Counted from the stretch's first letter, positions 46,634 through 60,653 are shown. The stretch is 64,000 bases of DNA from an uncultured bacterium (GCA_964644695.1 CAZXWN010000002.1:310001-374000), one strand, 5' to 3'. The notes: generated from the sequence alone by a model not told the origin. Made by a program: numbers and translations.

Positions 46634-48325
46634 TTATCGGGTTAATCCGGGAAGTAATGAGTGAGTTCTCTGGGTTCCCATCTCCACCCCGAGTAAATAT
46701 GCGATTGATGGGGCGATATCTTCCATATTGACCGGTTCAGTCCGGATACTCTGGGAGATTCCATTTCCATAAAAGATAATTGGGATATGGGTATCATATG
46801 GATAAGGTGAACCATGTTCCGTCCCGCCTTTATCGTAATTTCCAAATGCCCAGTAAGGTTTAAGTTGCAAGTATAAATCTCCGGAATTACGAGGAAATAT
46901 ACTATGTTGGATTAGCTGGACTTTATCACCATCCGGATACTGATTATGAAGCAACCTGTTTACCACATAAGCTTTAGATATTCCCTGTACCGATTCCGCT
47001 GCAGATGAAGCGGTTTCCAGGACCTCATCAACATTAAGTTTTTTATCTTTTATTTTTTGAATATCCAGATAAATATAAGGTTGATTCAATGAAAGAACAA
47101 CTGAATCGATATTGTAGGTTGTTTTAACCATTTCATTGATGCTATTGATAACGGCTTGTCCACTGACCCCTCCACCCAGGTCGTATTGAGCCATAAATCC
47201 GGGCATTGGAGGTGCACCGTGGTCAGCAGTATAAACAATGAGTGTATTGTTCAAACCGACCTCGGTATCAACAAATTTAAGGAAATCACTTAATGCCATG
47301 TCATATCGCATGACGGCATCCTGTGTGGCTTTTCCAAACGGTCCGTAGGTGTGTCCTATAACATCTGAAGGTGAAAAACTGACCATCAATAGGTCAGGAG
47401 TAGTGCTCTTACCTAACTTCTCATATCGGATACAAAATTTAGCCAATTCAAAGAGGTGGTCATTGGCATACGGTGTTCCCGCAAACTGTGCATAGAACTG
47501 ACTATCGGGTTTACCCGAAGTGCTGGTCAATGTGACGGGAAAGGGTACTCCAAACCCAGTTTCTTCGGCGGTTCGTTCTGGATGCGATAGTTGATAGTTT
47601 TTCTCATCAAACAGTAAGGTCCATTTCAGTCCATAATACTGGTCAACGGGGTACTTCTCATTAAAACTGCTCACCCAATCAGGTAACGTTTTACCGTAGT
47701 AAGTGCTGGATGTAAATTTTCCACTCTTACTGTCATACCAGATTGATGCATTCGGCAGATTTCCCCCCATAAGAATAGCTGAACGGTCTTTAAAAGATAG
47801 AGAGTATGCTCGTGAATGAAAATTATTAGATATCCTGAGACTGTCAGCAAGCGTCGTTACCTGGAGTTTTTTGGGCGACCTGCCAGAACTCAGGTCTGCA
47901 GGTGTTAACTTTCGCCCCTCCGCATCCGCTTCCTGTAATCGGGCCAGGACGGGGTATCTGGAATCTTCGGCACAATATACAGATTTCTTTGCATTTCGGT
48001 CATACCAGTAATTGGCGACGATACCATGTTCATCAGGAGATTGTCCGGTTCCAATTGTGGCGTGTCCGACTCCTGTATGAGAGGTCCCATAATTCAGGTG
48101 GGCATTGGTATAGAAGGTCCCTTTAGTTGAAATGGTTTTGAGTCCGCCGGTCAATTGATTTTCATACCGGGTGAGATAGTCATAACGGAATTGGTCATTT
48201 ACCAACACAATGACCAGGTTGGGGCGGGCTACAACCAGAGAGCAAATGAAAATAAACAACAGCATAAACATTAAACTCATTCTGGTTGACTTTGCAGAGT
48301 AGAAATGTGACATGGATAACCTCAC
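46634..48325 (-). CDS. Secreted PafA-type alkaline phosphatase superfamily protein
   Basis: VNDQFRYDYL, HTGVGHATIGTG (Thr nucleophile position), D..GH..GP, TADHG, HGSPYPYDTHIP. The true start is probably a few codons downstream. Confidence 0.88.
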   Translation of the reverse strand: MRLSMSHFYSAKSTRMSLMFMLLFIFICSLVVARPNLVIVLVNDQFRYDYLTRYENQLTGGLKTISTKGTFYTNAHLNYGTSHTGVGHATIGTGQSPDEHGIVANYWYDRNAKKSVYCAEDSRYPVLARLQEADAEGRKLTPADLSSGRSPKKLQVTTLADSLRISNNFHSRAYSLSFKDRSAILMGGNLPNASIWYDSKSGKFTSSTYYGKTLPDWVSSFNEKYPVDQYYGLKWTLLFDEKNYQLSHPERTAEETGFGVPFPVTLTSTSGKPDSQFYAQFAGTPYANDHLFELAKFCIRYEKLGKSTTPDLLMVSFSPSDVIGHTYGPFGKATQDAVMRYDMALSDFLKFVDTEVGLNNTLIVYTADHGAPPMPGFMAQYDLGGGVSGQAVINSINEMVKTTYNIDSVVLSLNQPYIYLDIQKIKDKKLNVDEVLETASSAAESVQGISKAYVVNRLLHNQYPDGDKVQLIQHSIFPRNSGDLYLQLKPYWAFGNYDKGGTEHGSPYPYDTHIPIIFYGNGISQSIRTEPVNMEDIAPSIAYLLGVEMGTQRTHSLLPGLTR

Positions 48326-48426: not shown

Positions 48427-48455
48427 TTGACTTGCCCGACACAATCGGTTATAGT
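48427..48455 (+). promoter_or_regulatory. Putative sigma70 promoter for the 48550-52109 operon
   Basis: TTGACT-N17-TATAGT. Confidence 0.6.
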
Positions 48456-48549
48456 CTCAAAAATATACATACCCTGTCAGTTTCTATGTGTATTTTTGTA
48501 TTATTATTGACTGACAGTCAGAATATTTATTGATGTGGAGGATATAGAT

Positions 48550-49266
48550 ATGAGTGGAATAATTCCCTGTGTTTTTCTAGTCGCCCGGCCTGCCGCCGGT
48601 AAAAGTGAAGTGATTGATTATCTCAAAAAATCTTCAGATGAAGAACGATTAAGCCGGTTCCATATTGGGAAAGTTCAGGAAATTGATGACTTTCCGTATA
48701 TTTGGGATTGGTTTGAAGAAGATGATATTCTCTCCAAACTTGGCAAGCCCCGTCTGCATAGTAAAGAAGACTATTACTTTATTGACGAGATCTACTGGGA
48801 TGTTTGTCTTTATAAAATAAACAATGCCTTCCAGAAACTGCAACGAGATAACCCCAATTTAGGTGTAGATACTACGGCCGTTATCGAATTTGCCCGTGGG
48901 GGAGACAATGCTTTTGCCCATGCTTTCTCCATTATGGAAGACCAGATGTTGAAGATGGGTGGTATTTGTTATATCAAGGTCAGTTATGAAGAATCAAGCC
49001 GGAAGAACCAACGCCGCAAACGCAAAGGTTTAGAAGATTCCGTATTGTTCCATTCACTCCCACAGGAGAAAATGGATTATTATTACAAGACCAATGACTG
49101 GGATCAAATTGCCCCTGATTTGGATGGTTATTTGAATGTAAAAGGCATCAATGTCCCTTATGCGGTATTACCGAATGAACCTGAAGTGACCGATACTAAG
49201 GAAAAACTGGGACCCGCGCTTGAAGATGTTTTTACACGTTTGTATAAACGCTATTCAGAACGGTAA
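48550..49266 (+). CDS. Uncharacterised P-loop NTPase (NMP/small-molecule kinase-like fold)
   Basis: N-terminal Walker A-like FLVARPAAGKSE, VIEFARG and a lid-like SRKNQRR segment; ATG 48550 follows a GGAGGA RBS. Confidence 0.65.
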   Translation: MSGIIPCVFLVARPAAGKSEVIDYLKKSSDEERLSRFHIGKVQEIDDFPYIWDWFEEDDILSKLGKPRLHSKEDYYFIDEIYWDVCLYKINNAFQKLQRDNPNLGVDTTAVIEFARGGDNAFAHAFSIMEDQMLKMGGICYIKVSYEESSRKNQRRKRKGLEDSVLFHSLPQEKMDYYYKTNDWDQIAPDLDGYLNVKGINVPYAVLPNEPEVTDTKEKLGPALEDVFTRLYKRYSER

Positions 49267-49268
49267 AT

Positions 49269-50645
49269 ATGATGAAATCGAATTTGATTCGTTTAACTTT
49301 ATGTAGCCTCATCCTGGCAGCACTTGCCGGATGGGGCTTCACTTTCCAATCTGGTTCATTAGTTCTTGGTGAGTATACTGTCAACCGGGTCGTGGATGGT
49401 GATACTCTGGGTGTTGATGGTTTACCGAAAACTGTCCGTTTTCTTAACATTGATACCGAAGAATCCGAAAAGGGGCCTGATGCAGAGGCTCTGACTCAGG
49501 AAATTATTAAGAATTTTACTCAAATCATGGCGCAAGCTACCGCCAAAGATCCTTATCCGAAAACAAATACTCCCCTCGGTTGGGAAGGAACTCTATTTGC
49601 CAAAAAATGTTTTCCTGTTGGAAGTGTAGTGAAGATTGAGTTTGATGAGCCTGGTCGTGAGTGGGATTATTATGGTCGAGTCTTAGGGTATGTCTTTTAT
49701 AAAAAAGATGGTAAATGGATAAACTATAATGTTGAGTGTGTCAGGCAGGGTATGAGCCCGTATTCCGATAAATATGGACCCTCCACACGATTCGAGTTGG
49801 CATTTCTGGAAGCAGAACGAGAAGCTCGCATCAATCAACGCGGTATTTGGGCTCCTGGAGCCATGGCTTATCCCGATTATGATGGGCGATTACGGTGGTG
49901 GAATCAACGAGGTAAAGCCTACAAGAATTTCCATACACAGTATAAAGGTAAACCTGGAGTCGTCGATATTCTCAATGATGTGGATTGGAATAAGATGGAG
50001 TCTCTCACAGGTACCGATGTGACTCTTTTTGGTTCTTTCAGTTTTTCTGGATATGATGGGTCCACGGCATGGTTGCAGTTGAATCATAATGACAAGCTGG
50101 CTATGGGAGTTTTTGTTGCTGACAGTGCTTTATGGGCGAAGGTGTCGCCTGATTTACGAGCGGCCGATGGTGAACTTGTTTATTTTAAAGGGAAGCTTCG
50201 TCCCGCTGTAGAATTGGGTCCCAAGAATTTCCTTTATACACTGTCCCTGGAATCCACCCCCCAATATTTCCATGATGTGTTTGTTCCTCGGAAAGCCAGA
50301 GAGTCCGGAGATATCCCCACAGTAAACACTTCCCGTAATGTGAAGCATCCTGAAGGAACTATTCCCTGGGAAGAAGCCACTAAATATATGGGTCAGGATG
50401 TTACTATTTCCGGTACAATTATTCTTACGAAAGATATTGGTTCCCGTACTTTCCTGAATTTTTCTAAGAATTTTCAGAATCAGATATCGCTTATGATTCC
50501 CAAAACTGCTTATGATAAATTCAAAGAATTACCCGCAACCCTTTTCTTAAATCGGACCGTGAAAGTCAAAGGGAAAGTCTCTGAATTCCAAGGGAAACCT
50601 CAAATTGTAGTGGAAGATTCATCTCAGATCGAAATTCTTGAATAA
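49269..50645 (+). CDS. Exported thermonuclease (SNase) with C-terminal OB-fold-like domain(s)
   Basis: Signal peptide; VVDGDTL, VRFLNIDTEE, DYYGRVLGYV, AEREAR..QRGIW. Confidence 0.85.
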   Translation: MMKSNLIRLTLCSLILAALAGWGFTFQSGSLVLGEYTVNRVVDGDTLGVDGLPKTVRFLNIDTEESEKGPDAEALTQEIIKNFTQIMAQATAKDPYPKTNTPLGWEGTLFAKKCFPVGSVVKIEFDEPGREWDYYGRVLGYVFYKKDGKWINYNVECVRQGMSPYSDKYGPSTRFELAFLEAEREARINQRGIWAPGAMAYPDYDGRLRWWNQRGKAYKNFHTQYKGKPGVVDILNDVDWNKMESLTGTDVTLFGSFSFSGYDGSTAWLQLNHNDKLAMGVFVADSALWAKVSPDLRAADGELVYFKGKLRPAVELGPKNFLYTLSLESTPQYFHDVFVPRKARESGDIPTVNTSRNVKHPEGTIPWEEATKYMGQDVTISGTIILTKDIGSRTFLNFSKNFQNQISLMIPKTAYDKFKELPATLFLNRTVKVKGKVSEFQGKPQIVVEDSSQIEILE

Positions 50646-50672
50646 CATATTGAGAAAGGCAGAGTAAAACAA

Positions 50673-52109
50673 ATGGCTCAAAAACATGAAGAAGGAAGTA
50701 CCGGGCAACTACTGAATTTGTGTTTCTGGTATTTTATCTTTTATATCCTTACGGGTATTTTTGTTAAGTTTTTTGTTCCCTTCAAGGTCAGTGAAATGGA
50801 ATGGTTGGTATGGAGTACATTAGGTAGTAATGTGCTTTGTATCGGAGTCGTATTTGCTTTAGGGTGGTTTAAGCTGAAATCCAGCAACTTGATCACCTGG
50901 GGTGGTATTACATTCCCGAAAGAATACCTATATATCATTCCATCTGGTATTTGTACTGCTGTAGTCATCCCTACCACAACTCTGATGTATTCCTTGCCCA
51001 TCACTGTCATGGTGGCAATGGTCATCATGCGGGGCAGTATCATTGTCCTTAGCCGGTTGATTGATGAAATACAGATTCGTCTGGGTATCCTGAAAAAGAA
51101 AGTCTATTGGCAAGAAAATGTAGGTGTTGTAATTGCCGTCCTGGCGGTCAGTACCCAATTGTTCCTGAATAAAAAGGTAGGAATGGACTTCTTTACATAC
51201 GGACCTGCCATGGTTATTCTTTCCAGTTATCTGGTTGCTTACTTCATTCGAATCTACATCATGAATTATTACAAGAATACTCGGCCTAAAGGTGCTGTTT
51301 ATGATACCAAGGGCTTTTTTGGTGTAGAACAGATATCCTCGACCATTACTATGATTACGGTATCTTTGCTGGTCTTCAATTTTGTAAATCCAGTTAAAGT
51401 TGTTACGGGAGCTCTTGATTGGAAAGAAGCTGGCAAACAAGTCAACCAAACTCAAACATTTATGGGTGAAGTCGTTGATATTAAAAAAACGGATGAGGGG
51501 ACTTTTTTAACCTTTTCTAAAGAAGACTCAACGGCATTACGAATTATAATTCCCAAAGATCTGGATAAGAAGTTTACCGTGGACACTGAAAAACTGTTCA
51601 AAGGTAGAATTGTCAGTGTTACAGGTTCTGTAAATCAAGTCAATAATTCTCCTGAATTATTGGTGCAAACGAAAAACGATATCAAAATTCAGGATTTCAA
51701 ACAGGTCCGCGATTTCAAGAAAGCCTTCACGGATACTCACTCTAACTGGCCCTGGCAAATGATTTTTGGTAGTTTCTTTGGAGCCGTTGCATTCTTCTCT
51801 GTATTTATCTTTATGTTTAAAGGGCGGACGGCGACTTTTGCCGGTTTAGTGAACCGGTTAACTTCATTAATAGCGGGTACTGTATCTACTTTGATTGTTT
51901 GGTTTGTCGCCAGTGGTAAGGTTCCGGCAATCACTCAGTGGTTATCCAATGTCAGTGGAGTTGAATATTCATTGCTTGTTGAAAAAGTGGCAAAATTTCC
52001 CAAAAACGCTGACTGGGTGACGCTGGTCCTGATTTTTGTTGCCGTCTGGTTCTTGGGACTTGCTGAAAACAGGCGAGTTGCTGAGTTAAAGAAAGAAAAA
52101 GAATTATAA
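50673..52109 (+). CDS. Polytopic membrane protein (DMT/EamA-like by inference) with an inserted OB-fold-like soluble domain
   Basis: About 10 hydrophobic helices; the soluble insert at 51411-51695 is homologous to the C-terminal domain of the upstream nuclease. Confidence 0.65.
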   Translation: MAQKHEEGSTGQLLNLCFWYFIFYILTGIFVKFFVPFKVSEMEWLVWSTLGSNVLCIGVVFALGWFKLKSSNLITWGGITFPKEYLYIIPSGICTAVVIPTTTLMYSLPITVMVAMVIMRGSIIVLSRLIDEIQIRLGILKKKVYWQENVGVVIAVLAVSTQLFLNKKVGMDFFTYGPAMVILSSYLVAYFIRIYIMNYYKNTRPKGAVYDTKGFFGVEQISSTITMITVSLLVFNFVNPVKVVTGALDWKEAGKQVNQTQTFMGEVVDIKKTDEGTFLTFSKEDSTALRIIIPKDLDKKFTVDTEKLFKGRIVSVTGSVNQVNNSPELLVQTKNDIKIQDFKQVRDFKKAFTDTHSNWPWQMIFGSFFGAVAFFSVFIFMFKGRTATFAGLVNRLTSLIAGTVSTLIVWFVASGKVPAITQWLSNVSGVEYSLLVEKVAKFPKNADWVTLVLIFVAVWFLGLAENRRVAELKKEKEL

Positions 52110-52132
52110 TTAAAAAGATAACCTTGATAGAT

Positions 52133-52162
52133 AAAGAGCCTTTCTAATCAGAAAGGCTCTTT
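52133..52162. terminator. Bidirectional intrinsic terminator
   Basis: AAAGAGCCTTTCT-aatc-AGAAAGGCTCTTT between convergent operons. Confidence 0.8.
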
Positions 52163-52165
52163 TTA

Positions 52166-53173
52166 TTATGCATATTTTTCAGCCGCTTTACGGACAGCCT
52201 GACGTAAGGTGTCCCAAGCTAAATCAGGATCTCCACAGCGGGTGTAAGAGATATGATGGCAACAGTTATAACCCCAGAAAGAGATGTTTCGGATGCTAGA
52301 TTGGATAGTCAGTTCAAGAGCCCTCTCCATTTCCCATTCTTGCCCTGAGGGTATCATCATTCCTTGTAGCCATATTTGTGGCTCCCAGTGGTTTCTATGG
52401 GCGATATCGAGGGTCTTTTGACTAAAGTCGGATACATAGGATTCCAAAGGTTGTTTGTCCCATATCCAATATGGATCCGTACCAAATACATCAACCTTTT
52501 TAATGTGATGAATATCCTCCCAGGGAATACTTCCTGCCTTACTGGGGTGATTGGGCAATAATATTAGGGCATTTTTCTTGTTTAATGTGGAATTTATCTG
52601 GCATAGGTCTGAAAGAAACTCTATCAATATGCTGGATTTCCAATGACTTATTTGGGGAAATGTGTGGAGGGGTAGGGTAACTCCATACTGATTAAGGTGA
52701 TTTTGCTGGCATCGTGGACAATGGCATGCCCAAGTTCCTTTGGAGGGCGCAGCCCAACCGGGAATGTAAAAATGGGGTTCATCCCAAAGAACATAATCGG
52801 TTTCACTGTGCCCAACCCCATCAAGCCATTGATAGAGGTAATCTCTAAATCCAGTACTTAGTGGGCAGGCATGAGGAACTCGGGTCCCATCTTCCAGTAT
52901 TTGACATTCAGAAGGGTATTTGGCGACAAACCAGGAGTACGCTTCTCCTCCAAATACTTTTCCAACACCCCAAGGGTCAGTGTATACTTCGAACCCGAAG
53001 TCTTTAGCCAGTGAAATAATATCGAATACGGTTTGTTTCCAGAATTGGAAATCATTTTCAGAAAGCGGGATGGTGAGGGTATTGAACCCATCCCGCTTCA
53101 ACTCTTCAAAATCAGTTTTTACATGGCGGAGATGATAGTTACCAAAATAACTGCATCCCAGCTTTATGGACAT
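52166..53173 (-). CDS. Hypothetical glycoside hydrolase-like TIM-barrel protein
   Basis: DPWGVGKVFGGE, WDEPH, CHCPRC metal motif reminiscent of GH42-type barrels, GTDPYW; family uncertain. Confidence 0.5.
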   Translation of the reverse strand: MSIKLGCSYFGNYHLRHVKTDFEELKRDGFNTLTIPLSENDFQFWKQTVFDIISLAKDFGFEVYTDPWGVGKVFGGEAYSWFVAKYPSECQILEDGTRVPHACPLSTGFRDYLYQWLDGVGHSETDYVLWDEPHFYIPGWAAPSKGTWACHCPRCQQNHLNQYGVTLPLHTFPQISHWKSSILIEFLSDLCQINSTLNKKNALILLPNHPSKAGSIPWEDIHHIKKVDVFGTDPYWIWDKQPLESYVSDFSQKTLDIAHRNHWEPQIWLQGMMIPSGQEWEMERALELTIQSSIRNISFWGYNCCHHISYTRCGDPDLAWDTLRQAVRKAAEKYA

Positions 53174-53925
53174 TACTTCTCACCAAATACCTGAGGTTTG
53201 TAAAAATTTGCCAGAGCTGTGTAGCCAGCCTCAGTCAGATGTAATCCATCTTTACTATATTCCTCTTTCAACTCTCCCTTGGAATCTTTTAACTGGGAGT
53301 GGGCATCCAGATAGATTGCGTTATTACGCTTGGCTGCACGTTGAATGTGTTCATTGAGAATGATAATGTTTCTGTTTGCAAAGGCCCATTTATCTCGGGT
53401 CGGAAGCACTGAGACAAAAAATAACTTCTTATTTGGAAGCCCTTTGCGAATGGCATTTGCCAGATTGTCATATTGATCAAGTTTGGTTCGGAAGGTAGTG
53501 TCTTGACGGAAGTAGGAGAGGTCATTTATGCCAATCATCATGACTACTTGATCCGGGTTTAAGTTATAAACACAGGAAGAAAGACGATCATAACATCCAC
53601 ACCGAAGAGCTCCACCCAGAGTGTCACCACTCATTCCCCGATTGATAGCTTTTTTCCCCGGGAAATACTTGTTTAAATCAAAGCCTTCAGTGAGAGAGTC
53701 CCCCAGAAATACCGTTCCGTTCTGCAAACTGGCCAAATTCTCTTGATTAAAGGCGGCAATTCTATTTTTGTGAAATTCCGAAATTGGCATCTTCCGGATA
53801 TCACCGACTTCTACTGTGGTGAAAGATTTCTTTTCGCTTGATGTGATTTGCTTTGAAGTCGTCACACAGCCAGAAATGACTAATGTTAATACGAGAAATA
53901 TGATGGTTGTTTTGATTTTATTCAT
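53173..53925 (-). CDS. SGNH/GDSL esterase lipoprotein
   Basis: Lipobox ISGC; GDSLTE, NRGMSGD, GIND, DGLH. Confidence 0.9.
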   Translation of the reverse strand: MNKIKTTIIFLVLTLVISGCVTTSKQITSSEKKSFTTVEVGDIRKMPISEFHKNRIAAFNQENLASLQNGTVFLGDSLTEGFDLNKYFPGKKAINRGMSGDTLGGALRCGCYDRLSSCVYNLNPDQVVMMIGINDLSYFRQDTTFRTKLDQYDNLANAIRKGLPNKKLFFVSVLPTRDKWAFANRNIIILNEHIQRAAKRNNAIYLDAHSQLKDSKGELKEEYSKDGLHLTEAGYTALANFYKPQVFGEK

Positions 53926-53930
53926 TTTAT

Positions 53931-54683
53931 TTATTTCTTATTCAAGATTTCTTTGTTGTAAACGGTAGTAATAAGTTCATAGCCTTTGGGGCTGAGATGA
54001 ATGTCATCTGCGGCCAAATCTTCTTTAAGCATACCCTTTTCATCTTTGAATAAATCATAGATATCAATATATTTGATGCCATATTTTTGAACGTGTGCTT
54101 TCATCCCAGCATTAAATTTGAGGGTTTGCTCATTGTATTTGGCATACTTTCCTTTGCAGGGAGTGCAAGAAACGACATAGATTTTGGTGTTGGGAAGGTT
54201 TTTTCGAAGAGTCCATAACAGGTAGTCATGACGGAGGATCTTATCTTCCACACTTTGAGAGGATACCCAGACAATATCATTTATTCCAATCATGAGGATA
54301 AGGGTTTTCGGATTTAAGTTATATACACAAGCATCCAGGCGGTCCATGAGCCCCCATCCGTTGGAGCCTCCCATGGTATCTCCACCGATTCCCCGGTTAG
54401 CAACTTTTTGACCCGGGAAATATTTCTCCACAGGAAAACGCTCAGTAATGGAGTCACCGACGAAAGCGATACAGCCCTGTAATTTTGCTACATCTTCTTT
54501 TTCAAACGCGGCCATACGCCCAGCAGCATAAGCACCCATCTTTCCTTTACCAGGCATTCCGACGGTTACAGGTTTAAAGTTTGGCTGTTCGGGAAGTGTA
54601 GCTTTGGAAAACTTAGTACTGGCACATCCGAGAGTGCCTAATATCATTGAGAGTGTTAAAACAATAGCTAGAAAACGAGTCAT
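53931..54683 (-). CDS. SGNH/GDSL esterase lipoprotein
   Basis: Lipobox TLGC; GDSITE, NRGIGGD, GIND, DDIH. Confidence 0.9.
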   Translation of the reverse strand: MTRFLAIVLTLSMILGTLGCASTKFSKATLPEQPNFKPVTVGMPGKGKMGAYAAGRMAAFEKEDVAKLQGCIAFVGDSITERFPVEKYFPGQKVANRGIGGDTMGGSNGWGLMDRLDACVYNLNPKTLILMIGINDIVWVSSQSVEDKILRHDYLLWTLRKNLPNTKIYVVSCTPCKGKYAKYNEQTLKFNAGMKAHVQKYGIKYIDIYDLFKDEKGMLKEDLAADDIHLSPKGYELITTVYNKEILNKK

Positions 54684-54819
54684 GGATGAATCCTCCGAAT
54701 AAATTCTGTTGAACGGGATTCATTTTACCACAGGGATTTGGTGCTTGGAATTCTAAATCTAAAAGCAATTTAAATATCTGTGTTCAGTGCAAATAAAGCT
54801 TTGTCTACACCCGTTAGAT

Positions 54820-55587
54820 TTATTTAACCTTAAAGATTTCCTTGTTGTAGATACGAGTTGTTAATTCGTAGCCTTTTTCAGTGAGATGAATATCATCAGA
54901 GGTTAACTCAGCTTTCAACAGGCCCTGTTCATCTGTGAATTGATCATACAAATCAACATATTTGAACCCATACTTGGGCGCATTTGTTTTTATCCCGTCA
55001 TTAAATAACCGGATTTGCTCATTAAATTTGCCGTATTTCCCTCTGCAGGGTGTTGCGGAAACGGTGTAAATCTCAGTGTTGGGGAGATTCTTATGGAGGG
55101 TCCATAAGAGGTAATCATAACGTCGTATTTTAGATTCCAAATCTTCTGTGGTGATCCAGATAATATCGTTTACTCCAATACAAAGGATTATCATTTTGGG
55201 ATGAAGATTATAAACAGAACTTTCCAGTCGATCCATCATTCCCCAAGGATACCAACCACCAATGGTATCTCCACCAATTCCACGATTAACTATTTTCAGA
55301 TTAGGGAAAAACTTGCCGATAGGATATCTCTCCTCAATAGAGGCACCAAGAAGGACAATTGACCCTTGTAGTTTGGATACATCCTCTTTTTCAAAGGCTG
55401 CCATTCGGCCGGCGGCATAAGAGCAGATATTCCCTTTCCCAGGCATTCCGACAGTGATAGGTTTAAAATCAGGAGGTTCGGGAAGTGTTTTTTTTGAGTA
55501 TTGGCTAGTGGTACATCCGATAGTACCAAGAATCATGGCTAGTGTTAGTATCATAATCAGTGCTCGCATCACGAAAAAATCTTTCAA
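54820..55587 (-). CDS. SGNH/GDSL esterase lipoprotein (GAS variant)
   Basis: Lipobox TIGC; GASIEE, NRGIGGD, GVND, DDIH. Confidence 0.88.
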   Translation of the reverse strand: MKDFFVMRALIMILTLAMILGTIGCTTSQYSKKTLPEPPDFKPITVGMPGKGNICSYAAGRMAAFEKEDVSKLQGSIVLLGASIEERYPIGKFFPNLKIVNRGIGGDTIGGWYPWGMMDRLESSVYNLHPKMIILCIGVNDIIWITTEDLESKIRRYDYLLWTLHKNLPNTEIYTVSATPCRGKYGKFNEQIRLFNDGIKTNAPKYGFKYVDLYDQFTDEQGLLKAELTSDDIHLTEKGYELTTRIYNKEIFKVK

Positions 55588-55664
55588 TTAAACTTTTCTG
55601 AATTGAATCAATTCTATCATATTGATTAGGGTTGTTTTTGATGTGATAAGGCTCAGAAATGGTT

Positions 55665-56417
55665 CTATTTCATACCAAAGATTTCTTTTTTATACACCCT
55701 GGTCATTATCTCGTAGCCAGCTGGTGTGAGATGGATATCATCAGCCGCTAATTCGGCTTTCAATTGCCCGTGTTCGTCTAAGAAAAGGTCATGTAAATCA
55801 ATAAATGGAATACCGTATTTTTGAGCATTTGATTTAATTCCTGCATTGAACTTGAGTATTTGGTCGTTATACTTACCTAATTTCCCTCTGCAAGGGGTGC
55901 AAGAGACAACGTAAATCTGGGTATCCGGGAGGTCTTTCTTAAGCTTCCATAATAAATATTCATGACAGAGAATTTTATCTTCAGTACTTTGGGTGGTAAT
56001 CCAGATGACATCATTGTTTCCGATTAAAAGCACCAGCTTTTTGGGATTTAAGTTATAGACAGAGCTTTCTAATCGATCTAATAGACCCCAGGAATACCAT
56101 CCGCCCATAGAATCCCCACCTATTCCCCTGTTCACTGTTTTGATGCCAGGGAAATATATGTCCAAAGAATAACGCTCGGTGCCGGAGGCTCCAACAAAAA
56201 CAGTACGCCCTTGTAGTTTAGAAATATCTTCCTTTGCAAAAGCAGCCATGCGACCTGCGGCATATGCGGGCATTTTACTTTTACCAGGCATGCCGAGTTT
56301 AACCGGTTCAAATTTTGGTTGTTCAGGGAGAGTCGTTTTGATGTGTTTAGTGCTGACACATCCAATGGATCCTAAAATTAGCGAACAGGAAAGTAGTACA
56401 AGTAGTGAGCCGTTCAT
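55665..56417 (-). CDS. SGNH/GDSL esterase lipoprotein (GAS variant)
   Basis: Lipobox SIGC; GASGTE, NRGIGGD, GNND, DDIH. Confidence 0.88.
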   Translation of the reverse strand: MNGSLLVLLSCSLILGSIGCVSTKHIKTTLPEQPKFEPVKLGMPGKSKMPAYAAGRMAAFAKEDISKLQGRTVFVGASGTERYSLDIYFPGIKTVNRGIGGDSMGGWYSWGLLDRLESSVYNLNPKKLVLLIGNNDVIWITTQSTEDKILCHEYLLWKLKKDLPDTQIYVVSCTPCRGKLGKYNDQILKFNAGIKSNAQKYGIPFIDLHDLFLDEHGQLKAELAADDIHLTPAGYEIMTRVYKKEIFGMK

Positions 56418-59276: not shown

Positions 59277-60653
59277 TTAAACAGTTCCTTTGATTTGCTC
59301 AATCAGTTGTTGTACAACGCGTTTGAAGTTGGCATCCATTTCCATGTCTTCATTGACCTTTTCACAGGCATGCATGATGGTGGTATGGTCACGGCCTCCA
59401 AAGGCTTCACCTATTTCCGGGAAGGACTTTTGAGTCATTTGTCTGGATAAGAACATGGCTACCTGCCGGGGTTCAACAACGCCTTTGGTTCTTCGTTTTC
59501 CCAGAAGGTCATCTTGTGAAATCTGGTAGTAAGTACAAACAGCATCCTGGATGTAGGAAATATCAATGACTTTTTCTTTACGCATTTCCATCAGGTCAGC
59601 CAGGACTCGTTTAGCCAGGTCCAGATTCATATGGCTTCCGGTCAGACTGGCGTGTGCTGCGACTCGAATCAAACTGCCTTCCAATTGTCGGATGTTGGAC
59701 ACAACATTATCAGCAATGAACATCATGACATCATGGGGAACCAGTAACTTTTCCTGCTCAGCTTTTTTCTGAAGGATGGCTATACGGGTTTCCAAATCAG
59801 GAGCCTGTATGTCAGCAATCAAACCCCATTCAAACCTGGATAGTAATCGCTCCTGTAAAGTAGGTATTTCTTTTGGAGGCCGATCAGAACTGACTACGAT
59901 TTGTTTATGAGCCCCATGAAGAGCATTAAAGGTATGGAAGAATTCTTCTTGTGTTCCCTCTTTACCTGCGAGGAAATGGATATCATCAATCAGAAGAATA
60001 TCAATGTTCCGATAAATGGCTTGGAAATCCTGTCTCCGGGAATGTGTTACCGCGGTAATAAAAGCATTCATAAACTGCTCTGCCGAAGTATAAAGAACTC
60101 GGGAGGCTTTTCCACTTTTCATGGCCCCGTGACAGATGGCATGGAGCAGGTGAGTTTTTCCCAGACCGACTCCTCCATAGAGGAATAACGGATTATAAGC
60201 TTTTGCCGGATTTTCAGATACAGCGAGTGATGCTGCGTGAGCCAGGCGATTATTGCCACCGACCACGAAGGTATCAAAGGTATATTTGGGATTCAGATTG
60301 TTGGCTGCCGGGATGAAACCTGCCAAAGGATCATTTGAAGTTACTTCAACAGCCGGTTTACGATTTGGAACGGGTGTTGGTGCTGGTGCCGGTTCTGTCT
60401 CTGAACGCAAGGTGATTTGGCAGGCGTCCCCTGTGACTTCTTCCATGGCACGGAGGATATCTTCCATAAAATGCGCCGAGATAAAATCCTTGAAATAACG
60501 GTTTGGAACATTGAGAACTAAACCTTTCTCAATGGTTCCTGACAGTTTTACCGGGCGTAACCATTCTTGTACCAGTTCACTACTCAAGCGATTTTCTAAA
60601 AGTGCTAGAGTTTGTATCCAGGCTTCTGTTTCATCAATAACACGGGTATTCAT
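59277..60653 (-). CDS. dnaA: Chromosomal replication initiator protein
   Basis: YTFDTFV, YNPLFLYGGVGLGKTHL, QEEFFHTFN, FGGRDHTT. Confidence 0.97.
   Translation of the reverse strand: MNTRVIDETEAWIQTLALLENRLSSELVQEWLRPVKLSGTIEKGLVLNVPNRYFKDFISAHFMEDILRAMEEVTGDACQITLRSETEPAPAPTPVPNRKPAVEVTSNDPLAGFIPAANNLNPKYTFDTFVVGGNNRLAHAASLAVSENPAKAYNPLFLYGGVGLGKTHLLHAICHGAMKSGKASRVLYTSAEQFMNAFITAVTHSRRQDFQAIYRNIDILLIDDIHFLAGKEGTQEEFFHTFNALHGAHKQIVVSSDRPPKEIPTLQERLLSRFEWGLIADIQAPDLETRIAILQKKAEQEKLLVPHDVMMFIADNVVSNIRQLEGSLIRVAAHASLTGSHMNLDLAKRVLADLMEMRKEKVIDISYIQDAVCTYYQISQDDLLGKRRTKGVVEPRQVAMFLSRQMTQKSFPEIGEAFGGRDHTTIMHACEKVNEDMEMDANFKRVVQQLIEQIKGTV

Follow-up and report, generated by a model that had tools for sequence, protein, structure and literature searches.

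Several exported bacterial nucleases carry OB folds in addition to their catalytic domain. OB folds of the YhcR type accompany the extracellular nucleases YhcR (B. subtilis), SWAN (S. sanguinis) and ExeM (S. oneidensis), with one or two folds per enzyme, and the activity of ExeM is nearly abolished once the region containing two OB folds is deleted (PMC4118848, PMC6085458). Here, we describe a locus from an uncultured bacterium, contained within a stretch of DNA of 64,000 nucleotides (GCA_964644695.1, CAZXWN010000002.1:310001-374000; hereafter the window), in which three co-directional open reading frames (ORFs) on the + strand encode a 238 amino acid (aa) protein with a predicted P-loop kinase fold (PL), a 458 aa nuclease with an SNase domain (SNase) and a 478 aa membrane protein (MEM) with ten transmembrane (TM) helices and a predicted drug/metabolite transporter (DMT) fold. 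SNase has the same build as YhcR, ExeM and SWAN, but whereas those systems have OB folds on the nuclease only, in the window the neighbouring transporter appears to hold another copy of the domain family within one of its loops. Full-text literature searches surfaced no secondary transporter with an OB domain in an outward loop, although this does not prove that none exists; such a domain, and the link of two unnamed but widespread protein families to nucleotide scavenging, would be the new elements of this locus.

A second point of comparison is with salvage routes such as UshA with NupC/NupG and nucleoside kinases, NadN-PnuC-NadR and LicB-LicA, in all of which a compound is dephosphorylated outside the cell, the uncharged product imported and the imported product re-phosphorylated inside. 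The unit in the window would follow the same logic. It differs from these routes in that neither the MEM nor the PL family has a named member and in that the module begins with a polymer-cutting nuclease. On balance, and with modest confidence, we favour the reading that this is an operon for scavenging nucleic acids or nucleosides, built on an older and widespread core of PL and MEM, in which the OB domain of MEM tethers polymer at the point of uptake. Homology, folds, the insertion site, distribution and gene contexts were computed and are presented in the first two of the sections below.

The domain shared by the nuclease and the membrane protein

BLASTP aligned residues 358-456 of SNase with residues 241-339 of MEM without gaps (33/99 identical, 49/99 positives, E 3e-12 for the pair). 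The original prediction had counted 30 identities over 95 positions by hand; the match is slightly longer and better than this, and far beyond chance. In SNase the copy is the C-terminal domain (aa 351-458; 50319..50642, + strand), whilst in MEM it is a 112 aa domain (aa 234-345; 51372..51707, + strand) located between TM7 and TM8 of the AlphaFold2 (AF2) model. The middle part of SNase (aa ~238-340; 49980..50288, + strand) is a distant repeat of the same domain, with E 2e-4 against the C-terminal domain and a secondary phmmer match at 238-284.

A profile built from four copies of the domain (those of the window and of locus L002) was searched against 1.84 billion representative proteins and matched 3264 of them at E<=1e-3; the stricter limit of E<=1e-10 left 712. 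Many of the matched proteins have two to seven tandem copies. Among the best 149 matches the Pfam families found were PF01336 (105 proteins, at E<=1e-3), PF13742 (30), the SNase domain (13), the PLD-like PLDc_2 (6) and the EEP nuclease family (4), and at least 23 of the 149 are nucleases. The C-terminus of SNase itself matches PF01336 at E 9.7e-5 with 22.7 bits, below the 27-bit cut-off, and precomputed domains list PF01336 for eight of the 23 aligned SNase clusters. Orthologues aside, the five closest relatives of the MEM insert each match PF01336 within the part that aligns (BLAST E ~1e-15 to 1e-16, small database), two of them being SNases and one an EEP nuclease. NCBIfam gives the insert a weak match (E 0.022) to the Asp-tRNA ligase N-terminal region, and the profile of OB copies gave only non-significant matches to PDB sequences, at E 0.1-0.5 (the OB domains of RPA32, LysRS and AspRS, and the FACT subunit Pob3). 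Judged by these homologues, both copies thus appear to belong to a common PF01336-type OB family typical of secreted nucleases, in agreement with the nuclease-associated OB fold that had been predicted. That the family binds nucleic acid we infer solely from the nucleases that the domain accompanies.

The genome to which the window belongs has only one other clear occurrence of the domain (L165:1429-2166, contig C1). This is a 245 aa exported protein built entirely from two OB domains of this family in tandem, and its gene adjoins ABC permease genes.

The nuclease itself (49269..50645, + strand) is an ordinary OB-bearing SNase. Its catalytic domain (aa 55-195) matches PF00565 with 46.7 bits against a cut-off of 21, and a phmmer search against 283 thermonuclease chains gave a best E of 5.4e-12. 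DGDT, the Arg of TVRFL, DTEE and YYGR align with the corresponding thermonuclease motif stretches, and these motif residues are invariant in 23 family members; in enzymes of the thermonuclease type the Asp, Asp-Thr, Arg, Glu and Arg residues have metal-binding or catalytic roles. The N-terminus is a hydrophobic leader, predicted to be a signal peptide, and SNase is probably exported on the strength of it. The 22 further full-length relatives (442-468 aa) have the same three-part build, giving a family of 23 clusters with one architecture.

On which side of the membrane the MEM insert lies can be judged from the distribution of charge. In 10-TM DMT transporters both termini are inside, and our counts of Lys and Arg residues assume the same of MEM. 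In 50 insert-free homologues the loops then assigned to the inside hold a mean of 14.3 such residues and those assigned to the outside 4.9, with inside exceeding outside in 50/50; MEM of the window, counted without its insert, has 12 inside and 7 outside. By the positive-inside rule and the DMT precedent, a domain in the TM7-TM8 loop most likely faces outward, as the original prediction expected, and would share that side with the exported nuclease. Between TM9 and TM10, another outward loop holds a small lineage-specific expansion (aa 414-444; 51912..52004, + strand; alignment columns 491-515) that is found in the OB-bearing forms (the window, P0002 and P0003) and nowhere else.

We surveyed 161 MEM loci, made up of the window together with 80 loci from genomes and 80 from metagenomes. 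The OB insert is confined to the window and to L002, from a metagenome-assembled genome (MAG) labelled UBP4, and the same two loci alone have an SNase gene within their flanks. The window’s phylum is represented by five species genomes in the collection. MEM is single copy in all five, PL is found solely beside it, and PL is directly followed by MEM on one strand in 5/5; in the window’s genome (G000) and its sister genome (G009) the SNase gene lies in between and the OB insert is present, whilst the intervening SNase gene and the insert are both missing from G006, G007 and G008, the last of which is in the same family. The insert therefore occurs only where the nuclease is adjacent, in 2/2 loci for which DNA was available, against 0/159 other loci and 0/3 other genomes of the phylum, as had been anticipated. 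The pattern in G000 and G009 is nonetheless one evolutionary event and not five independent data points. The OB-bearing sublineage comprises the window’s genome, the UBP4 genome UBA6127 and two metagenome relatives.

Other inserts occupy the same loop elsewhere in the MEM family. An unrelated ~90 aa helical insert rich in Ala, Lys and Glu marks one clade and is present at 12 metagenome loci (L083-L090, L101, L105, L107 and L116) and in the genome protein P0049, and a different insert of ~45 aa in P0008 and P0064, from the sister clade of the window’s lineage. We considered whether the insert of P0008 might be a decayed OB domain and rejected this (hhalign probability 1.1).

These inserts raise the possibility that the OB domain is a tolerated decoration, whether neutral, a binder of envelope glycan or protein, or a lid, with no role in nucleic-acid handling and resembling the nuclease domain only because both belong to a common exported family. 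The sequence of the insert gives this some weight. It evolves fast: the window and its relatives share 36-37% identity over the insert, but ~55% over the SNase OB domain and 76% over the MEM core. The Tyr/Phe of the family stretch YxGxPQI is replaced in the MEM copy. The OB domain of the neighbouring SNase ranks only 28-30 of 222 among the BLAST matches of the insert. Set against this, the core residues of the family are invariant in the insert and the domain is intact in all four sequence clusters that bear it, it is confined to a lineage whose operon already has the nuclease, and the TM9-TM10 loop is enlarged alongside it. We consider the decoration explanation unlikely.

The original prediction called the domain duplicated. 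That it is shared stands, whilst copying from the neighbour is neither shown nor rejected. The SNase OB domain is no closer to the insert than are 22 OB domains of other proteins, and when the SNase OB domain is the query, the MEM copies come at ranks 172-193 of 242 BLAST matches. FastTree and two quick maximum-likelihood trees disagree on where the MEM copies are placed. When the MEM copies and the lineage’s SNase OB domains were forced into one clade, the tree exceeded that of the unconstrained quick search by 22.65 log-likelihood units (p-AU 0.878); a local origin of the insert is thus allowed, and mildly favoured, by the sequences.

The core pair and its genomic contexts

MEM (50673..52109, + strand) belongs to an unnamed and highly conserved family with more than 1768 homologues, nearly all 350-400 aa long and 55-65% identical across phyla. 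Chance-level matches aside, searches of Pfam and NCBIfam assign MEM to no family at E<=0.1, EamA, TPT, NST and GRP included; in a language-model search the neighbours that do have a family are GRP, EamA and EmrE proteins, with scores of only 0.78-0.80. The AF2 model has ten long helices, with pLDDT ~90 for the TM core. In a Foldseek search with this model, ranks 1-28 and every row with probability 1.00 are DMT transporters (TM-score 0.55-0.69 on target, E 1.9e-4 and weaker), among them PfCRT (6ukj), TPT (5y78), Vrg4 (5oge), SLC35B1 (9i20), the CMP-sialic acid transporter (6oh3), LicB (7paf) and YddG-type chains. Several of these solved transporters carry nucleotides or nucleotide-sugars. MEM shares the 10-TM fold with them but only 8-12% sequence identity, and differs in its 112 aa soluble TM7-TM8 domain. 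As modelled, MEM is a 10-TM DMT fold made of two 5-TM halves and lying outside every named DMT family by sequence, which bears out the predicted resemblance to DMT/SLC35 transporters. Its helices hold many invariant Arg, Asn and Thr residues. A kinship with the SLC35 nucleotide-sugar transporters is suggested by the fold, and the stretches GLVNR and MNYYKN may resemble Vrg4 motifs.

At L001:5995-8225, in a MAG labelled Coxiellaceae, a gene of the MEM family is split over a pair of ORFs that overlap (377 and 415 aa), both matching the profile over its full length. This suggests either a tandem duplication or an assembly or frameshift artefact.

PL (48550..49266, + strand) likewise represents an unnamed family, with 1831 homologues of ~238 aa. 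The start at 48550 (MSGIIP...) is more probably correct than an alternative GTG at 48535, to judge from the family alignment. PL has no Pfam family: the best Pfam matches, at E 0.005-0.07, fall below their cut-offs and are weak and mixed across 37 members. A profile of the family gave only chance-level matches to PDB sequences (KIN17 and Der). The AF2 model has pLDDT 90.6, and its top fold neighbours are at Z 12-12.7 over 166-189 aligned residues. The likeness extends, with Z 10.9-12.7, to gluconate kinase (1knq/3t61), UMP/CMP and adenylate kinases, deoxyguanosine kinase (2ocp) and NRK1 (2p0e), although PL is not a member of any of these families at the sequence level. The Walker A motif GRPAAGKS is invariant among the 37 homologues, and the acidic pair that follows strand 2 is conserved, as is a lid-like stretch rich in Arg; all three motifs have established roles in P-loop kinases. 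The predicted structure is that of a P-loop small-molecule kinase, as the original prediction had it for the first gene. The top matches lie within 1 Z unit of one another across at least eight kinds of kinase: gluconate, CMP/UMP, adenylate and deoxynucleoside kinases, Kti12 and PSTK are all tied, as are tRNA-linked and antibiotic kinases.

Proteins of 550 and 443 aa, encoded at L047:1722-3374 and L058:6807-8138, are longer, lack a Pfam family and give a weaker match to the PL profile (E ~1e-33). Each adjoins a DMT gene and may be a fusion or a paralogue of PL.

Linkage of the nuclease to this pair appears to be wider than the insert. In ten cases the longest contig of an SNase cluster is identical in length, to the base pair, to that of a PL or MEM cluster, from which we infer that the genes are adjacent on those contigs. 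Two of them pair SNase with an OB-bearing MEM and no PL cluster (18985 bp, SNase P0254 and MEM P0001; 18118 bp, P0518 and P0003). In three more the MEM protein (395, 361 and 365 aa) lacks the OB insert: 66853 bp, with SNase P0391, MEM P0008, which has the 45 aa insert, and PL P0122; 5820 bp, with P0396, P0052 and PL P0515 and no insert; and 14498 bp, with P0397 and P0057, no insert and no PL cluster. The other five match PL and no MEM cluster (95013 bp, SNase P0517 and PL P0124; 24312 bp, P0398 and P0147; 75701 bp, P0394 and P0129; 5219 bp, P0393 and P0126; 2139 bp, P0411 and P0148), and in the last of these the two genes nearly fill the contig. Identical contig sizes thus link SNase to the pair in at least eight further lineages. 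A search of 101 genomes (G000, its four phylum-mates and 96 from other phyla) found the SNase family in G000 and G009 only, but the sample was not aimed at the right clades and says little.

The original prediction held that conservation of the kinase-membrane pair elsewhere in an unrelated pathway, with the nuclease as a one-off neighbour, would speak against it. The pair is indeed widespread without a nuclease. The nuclease, however, would not be a one-off if the contig matches are read correctly, and the other contexts of the pair, described below, are nucleotide-related.

A tree of the MEM core, from which the insert columns had been dropped, groups the window, P0002 and P0003 (support 99), with P0008 and P0064 (99) as their sister group; P0006, taken as the MEM protein of G008, joins them in a clade of eight rows with support 96 that also holds P0004 and P0005. 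P0052 and P0057 lie near P0099, taken as the MEM protein of G006. The simplest order of events is that the pair is old, that SNase joined it in parts of the phylum and that the OB insert was gained later, once.

Across the loci surveyed the arrangement of the pair varies. PL lies within the fetched flank of MEM at 42 of the 161 loci, of which 32 are convergent, seven have PL upstream of MEM on one strand and three the reverse order. Among 151 genomes of one class PL is found in 30, MEM in 11 and both in five (one-sided Fisher p 0.043, with kin that are not independent); where MEM has no adjacent PL gene, PL is present elsewhere in two of five genomes. An IS200-like transposase gene (Y1_Tnp) lies between MEM and a convergent PL gene at L074:3206-3775 and at L141.

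The neighbours of PL were compared between these 42 loci and 20 loci (L178-L197) from genomes in the class of G002 that have PL without MEM. An exported 5'-nucleotidase (Metallophos and 5_nucleotid_C domains, with a leader peptide) lies beside PL at 9/42 and 5/20 loci, respectively, one family of MFS transporter at 7/42 and 12/20, and a TonB-dependent-receptor-like protein at 5/20 of the PL-only loci. At L078 the gene row reads nucleotide pyrophosphatase, MFS transporter, MEM, PL and 5'-nucleotidase. The same MFS and 5'-nucleotidase families also flank MEM at other loci. Many of these loci are kin by descent, the independent contexts numbering roughly three to four, and in the other four genomes of the window’s phylum no recurring nucleotide enzyme was found among the neighbours of the pair. 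The recurring set of an exported nucleotide phosphoesterase, a transporter of either kind and PL is suggestive of nucleoside salvage, and looks like a modular uptake-and-phosphorylation system with interchangeable transporters. These contexts would lend indirect support to a logic of cutting, import and phosphorylation, and a route from nuclease through nucleotidase to nucleoside import is described in a published report (PMC8289736).

The same contexts bear on the possibility that the core pair handles some other small molecule, such as nicotinamide riboside or a sugar acid, with SNase a later and loose add-on for phosphate or carbon and the OB domain unrelated to the cargo. The nicotinamide riboside route of Haemophilus consists of a periplasmic nucleotidase (NadN), a transporter (PnuC) and a P-loop kinase (NadR), and several features of PL recall it: a language-model search names a near PL cluster ‘putative NadR/Ttd14 AAA domain-containing protein’ (0.98), human nicotinamide riboside kinase is among the fold matches of PL, and the 5'-nucleotidases that adjoin PL reach or approach the cut-off of the NadN C-terminal model (27.2 bits against 27, and 22.9 bits). 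The top VIA matches of PL are gluconate kinases and a putative cytidylate kinase, and most lineages have the pair without any nuclease. Yet the fold matches of PL do not discriminate between substrates, links between SNase and the pair recur across the phylum and the insert in MEM is of the kind that accompanies nucleases. A different cargo strikes us as distinctly unlikely.

Scavenging and the points for and against it

In the scheme that we favour, topology, binding, substrate, kinase activity and the direction of transport are reasoned from the results above. SNase would be exported and cut DNA or RNA outside the cytoplasmic membrane. Phosphoesterases would then strip phosphates from the products, the candidates being the nucleotide pyrophosphatase encoded next to the unit (see below) and the single 5'-nucleotidase of the genome. 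MEM would import the small product, most likely nucleosides, and PL would phosphorylate it in the cell and so trap it. The OB domain of MEM would hold polymer or oligonucleotide at the mouth of the transporter, such that products are released at the point of uptake.

A number of observations weigh against this scheme. SNases leave 3'-phosphates, so that a further phosphatase is needed, yet the pyrophosphatase gene is not conserved, being absent at the corresponding place in the sister genome G009. Most PL-MEM pairs are convergent and not co-transcribed, and in other clades the two are only loosely coupled and not an obligate pair. The invariant Arg, Asn and Thr residues of the MEM helices could point to a phosphorylated substrate instead of nucleosides, and the tied fold matches mean that the substrate of PL is not readable from its fold. 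The TM7-TM8 loop is an insertion hot spot that tolerates inserts of several kinds. Finally, the MEM insert has no Pfam match at E<=0.1 and its AF2 model, whilst five-stranded, has pLDDT <50 for residues 241-341, so that its OB fold rests on sequence homology.

A stronger joint claim can be formulated, in two parts. In the first, OB-bearing MEM would be a receptor-transporter that keeps single-stranded DNA or RNA bound on the outside of the cytoplasmic membrane, whilst the nuclease with its two OB domains either acts on that strand or docks onto the OB domain of MEM, making a machine that docks, cuts and imports. In the second, PL and MEM would constitute a route, new and widespread, by which nucleosides are taken up and trapped in Ignavibacteria, Elusimicrobiota, Eisenbacteria, Myxococcota and the candidate phylum of the window, unnamed in databases, with an MFS transporter replacing the DMT protein in other lineages. 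That both parts hold together is speculative, and we would not expect it to prove correct in full.

A nuclease encoded together with a P-loop protein and a membrane protein is also a common outline of defence systems, and a device for defence or DNA uptake, composed of a nuclease, a membrane channel and an NTPase, was considered. SNase matches the PADLOC candidate model C3a212 ‘SNc+LTD’ at E 7.3e-13, but the match spans the SNase domain only, and PL and MEM match nothing in PADLOC. Both are single copy here and 55-65% identical across phyla, unlike the fast-turnover genes of defence systems; an exported nuclease would be kept away from phage DNA in the cytoplasm, and the DMT fold carries small solutes and not polymers. 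This explanation is very improbable, and we reject it on the restriction of the PADLOC match to the nuclease domain and on the pattern of conservation.

If the scavenging scheme is true, it provides a first functional handle on two large conserved families that are unnamed in Pfam and NCBIfam, each with ~1,800 or more clusters recovered by a single search. A secondary transporter with a polymer-binding domain would be an economical means of coupling extracellular digestion to uptake, and the unit would serve as a genetic marker for DNA or RNA foraging in the uncultured bacteria of anaerobic digesters and sludge. The natural variants of MEM, with no insert, the OB insert, the helical insert or the 45 aa insert, and with or without the nuclease, make the scheme directly testable.

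Signals, neighbouring genes and occurrence

The three ORFs are separated by gaps of 2 and 27 nt, between PL and SNase and between SNase and MEM, respectively. The original prediction described a unit running from promoter to terminator, and for this the ORFs and the terminator hold up. A strong terminator-like hairpin with a 13-bp stem and a T run follows MEM, between convergent genes (52133..52162, + strand). Upstream of PL, the promoter-like site TTGACT-17-TATAGT (48427..48455, + strand) matches the consensus at 10/12 positions. Such sites number 14 in the region, against 10.2 +/- 3.1 expected from shuffles, and are thus not enriched; the promoter is therefore a consensus match only, and of the two signals the terminator alone carries weight.

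Divergent to the unit lies the gene for a predicted exported type I phosphodiesterase/nucleotide pyrophosphatase (46634..48325, - strand), with a PF01663 match at 1.1e-36 and a hydrophobic N-terminus. It is a possible accessory of the module. Beyond the terminator, 52166-56417 on the - strand encodes a 335 aa protein without a Pfam family and then four tandem exported GDSL-type lipase/acylhydrolase paralogues of ~250 aa each, and the same block of the 335 aa protein and GDSL genes follows the transporter gene in the UBP4 relative (L002/L175).

The DNA of the unit occurs in metagenome runs from sludge, wastewater and biogas; no RNA run is among the 21 runs listed. The cumulative GC skew climbs across nearly the whole window without a turn. 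At 59277-60653 on the - strand lies dnaA, encoding the N, ATPase and C domains of DnaA, and its presence puts the window near a replication origin.

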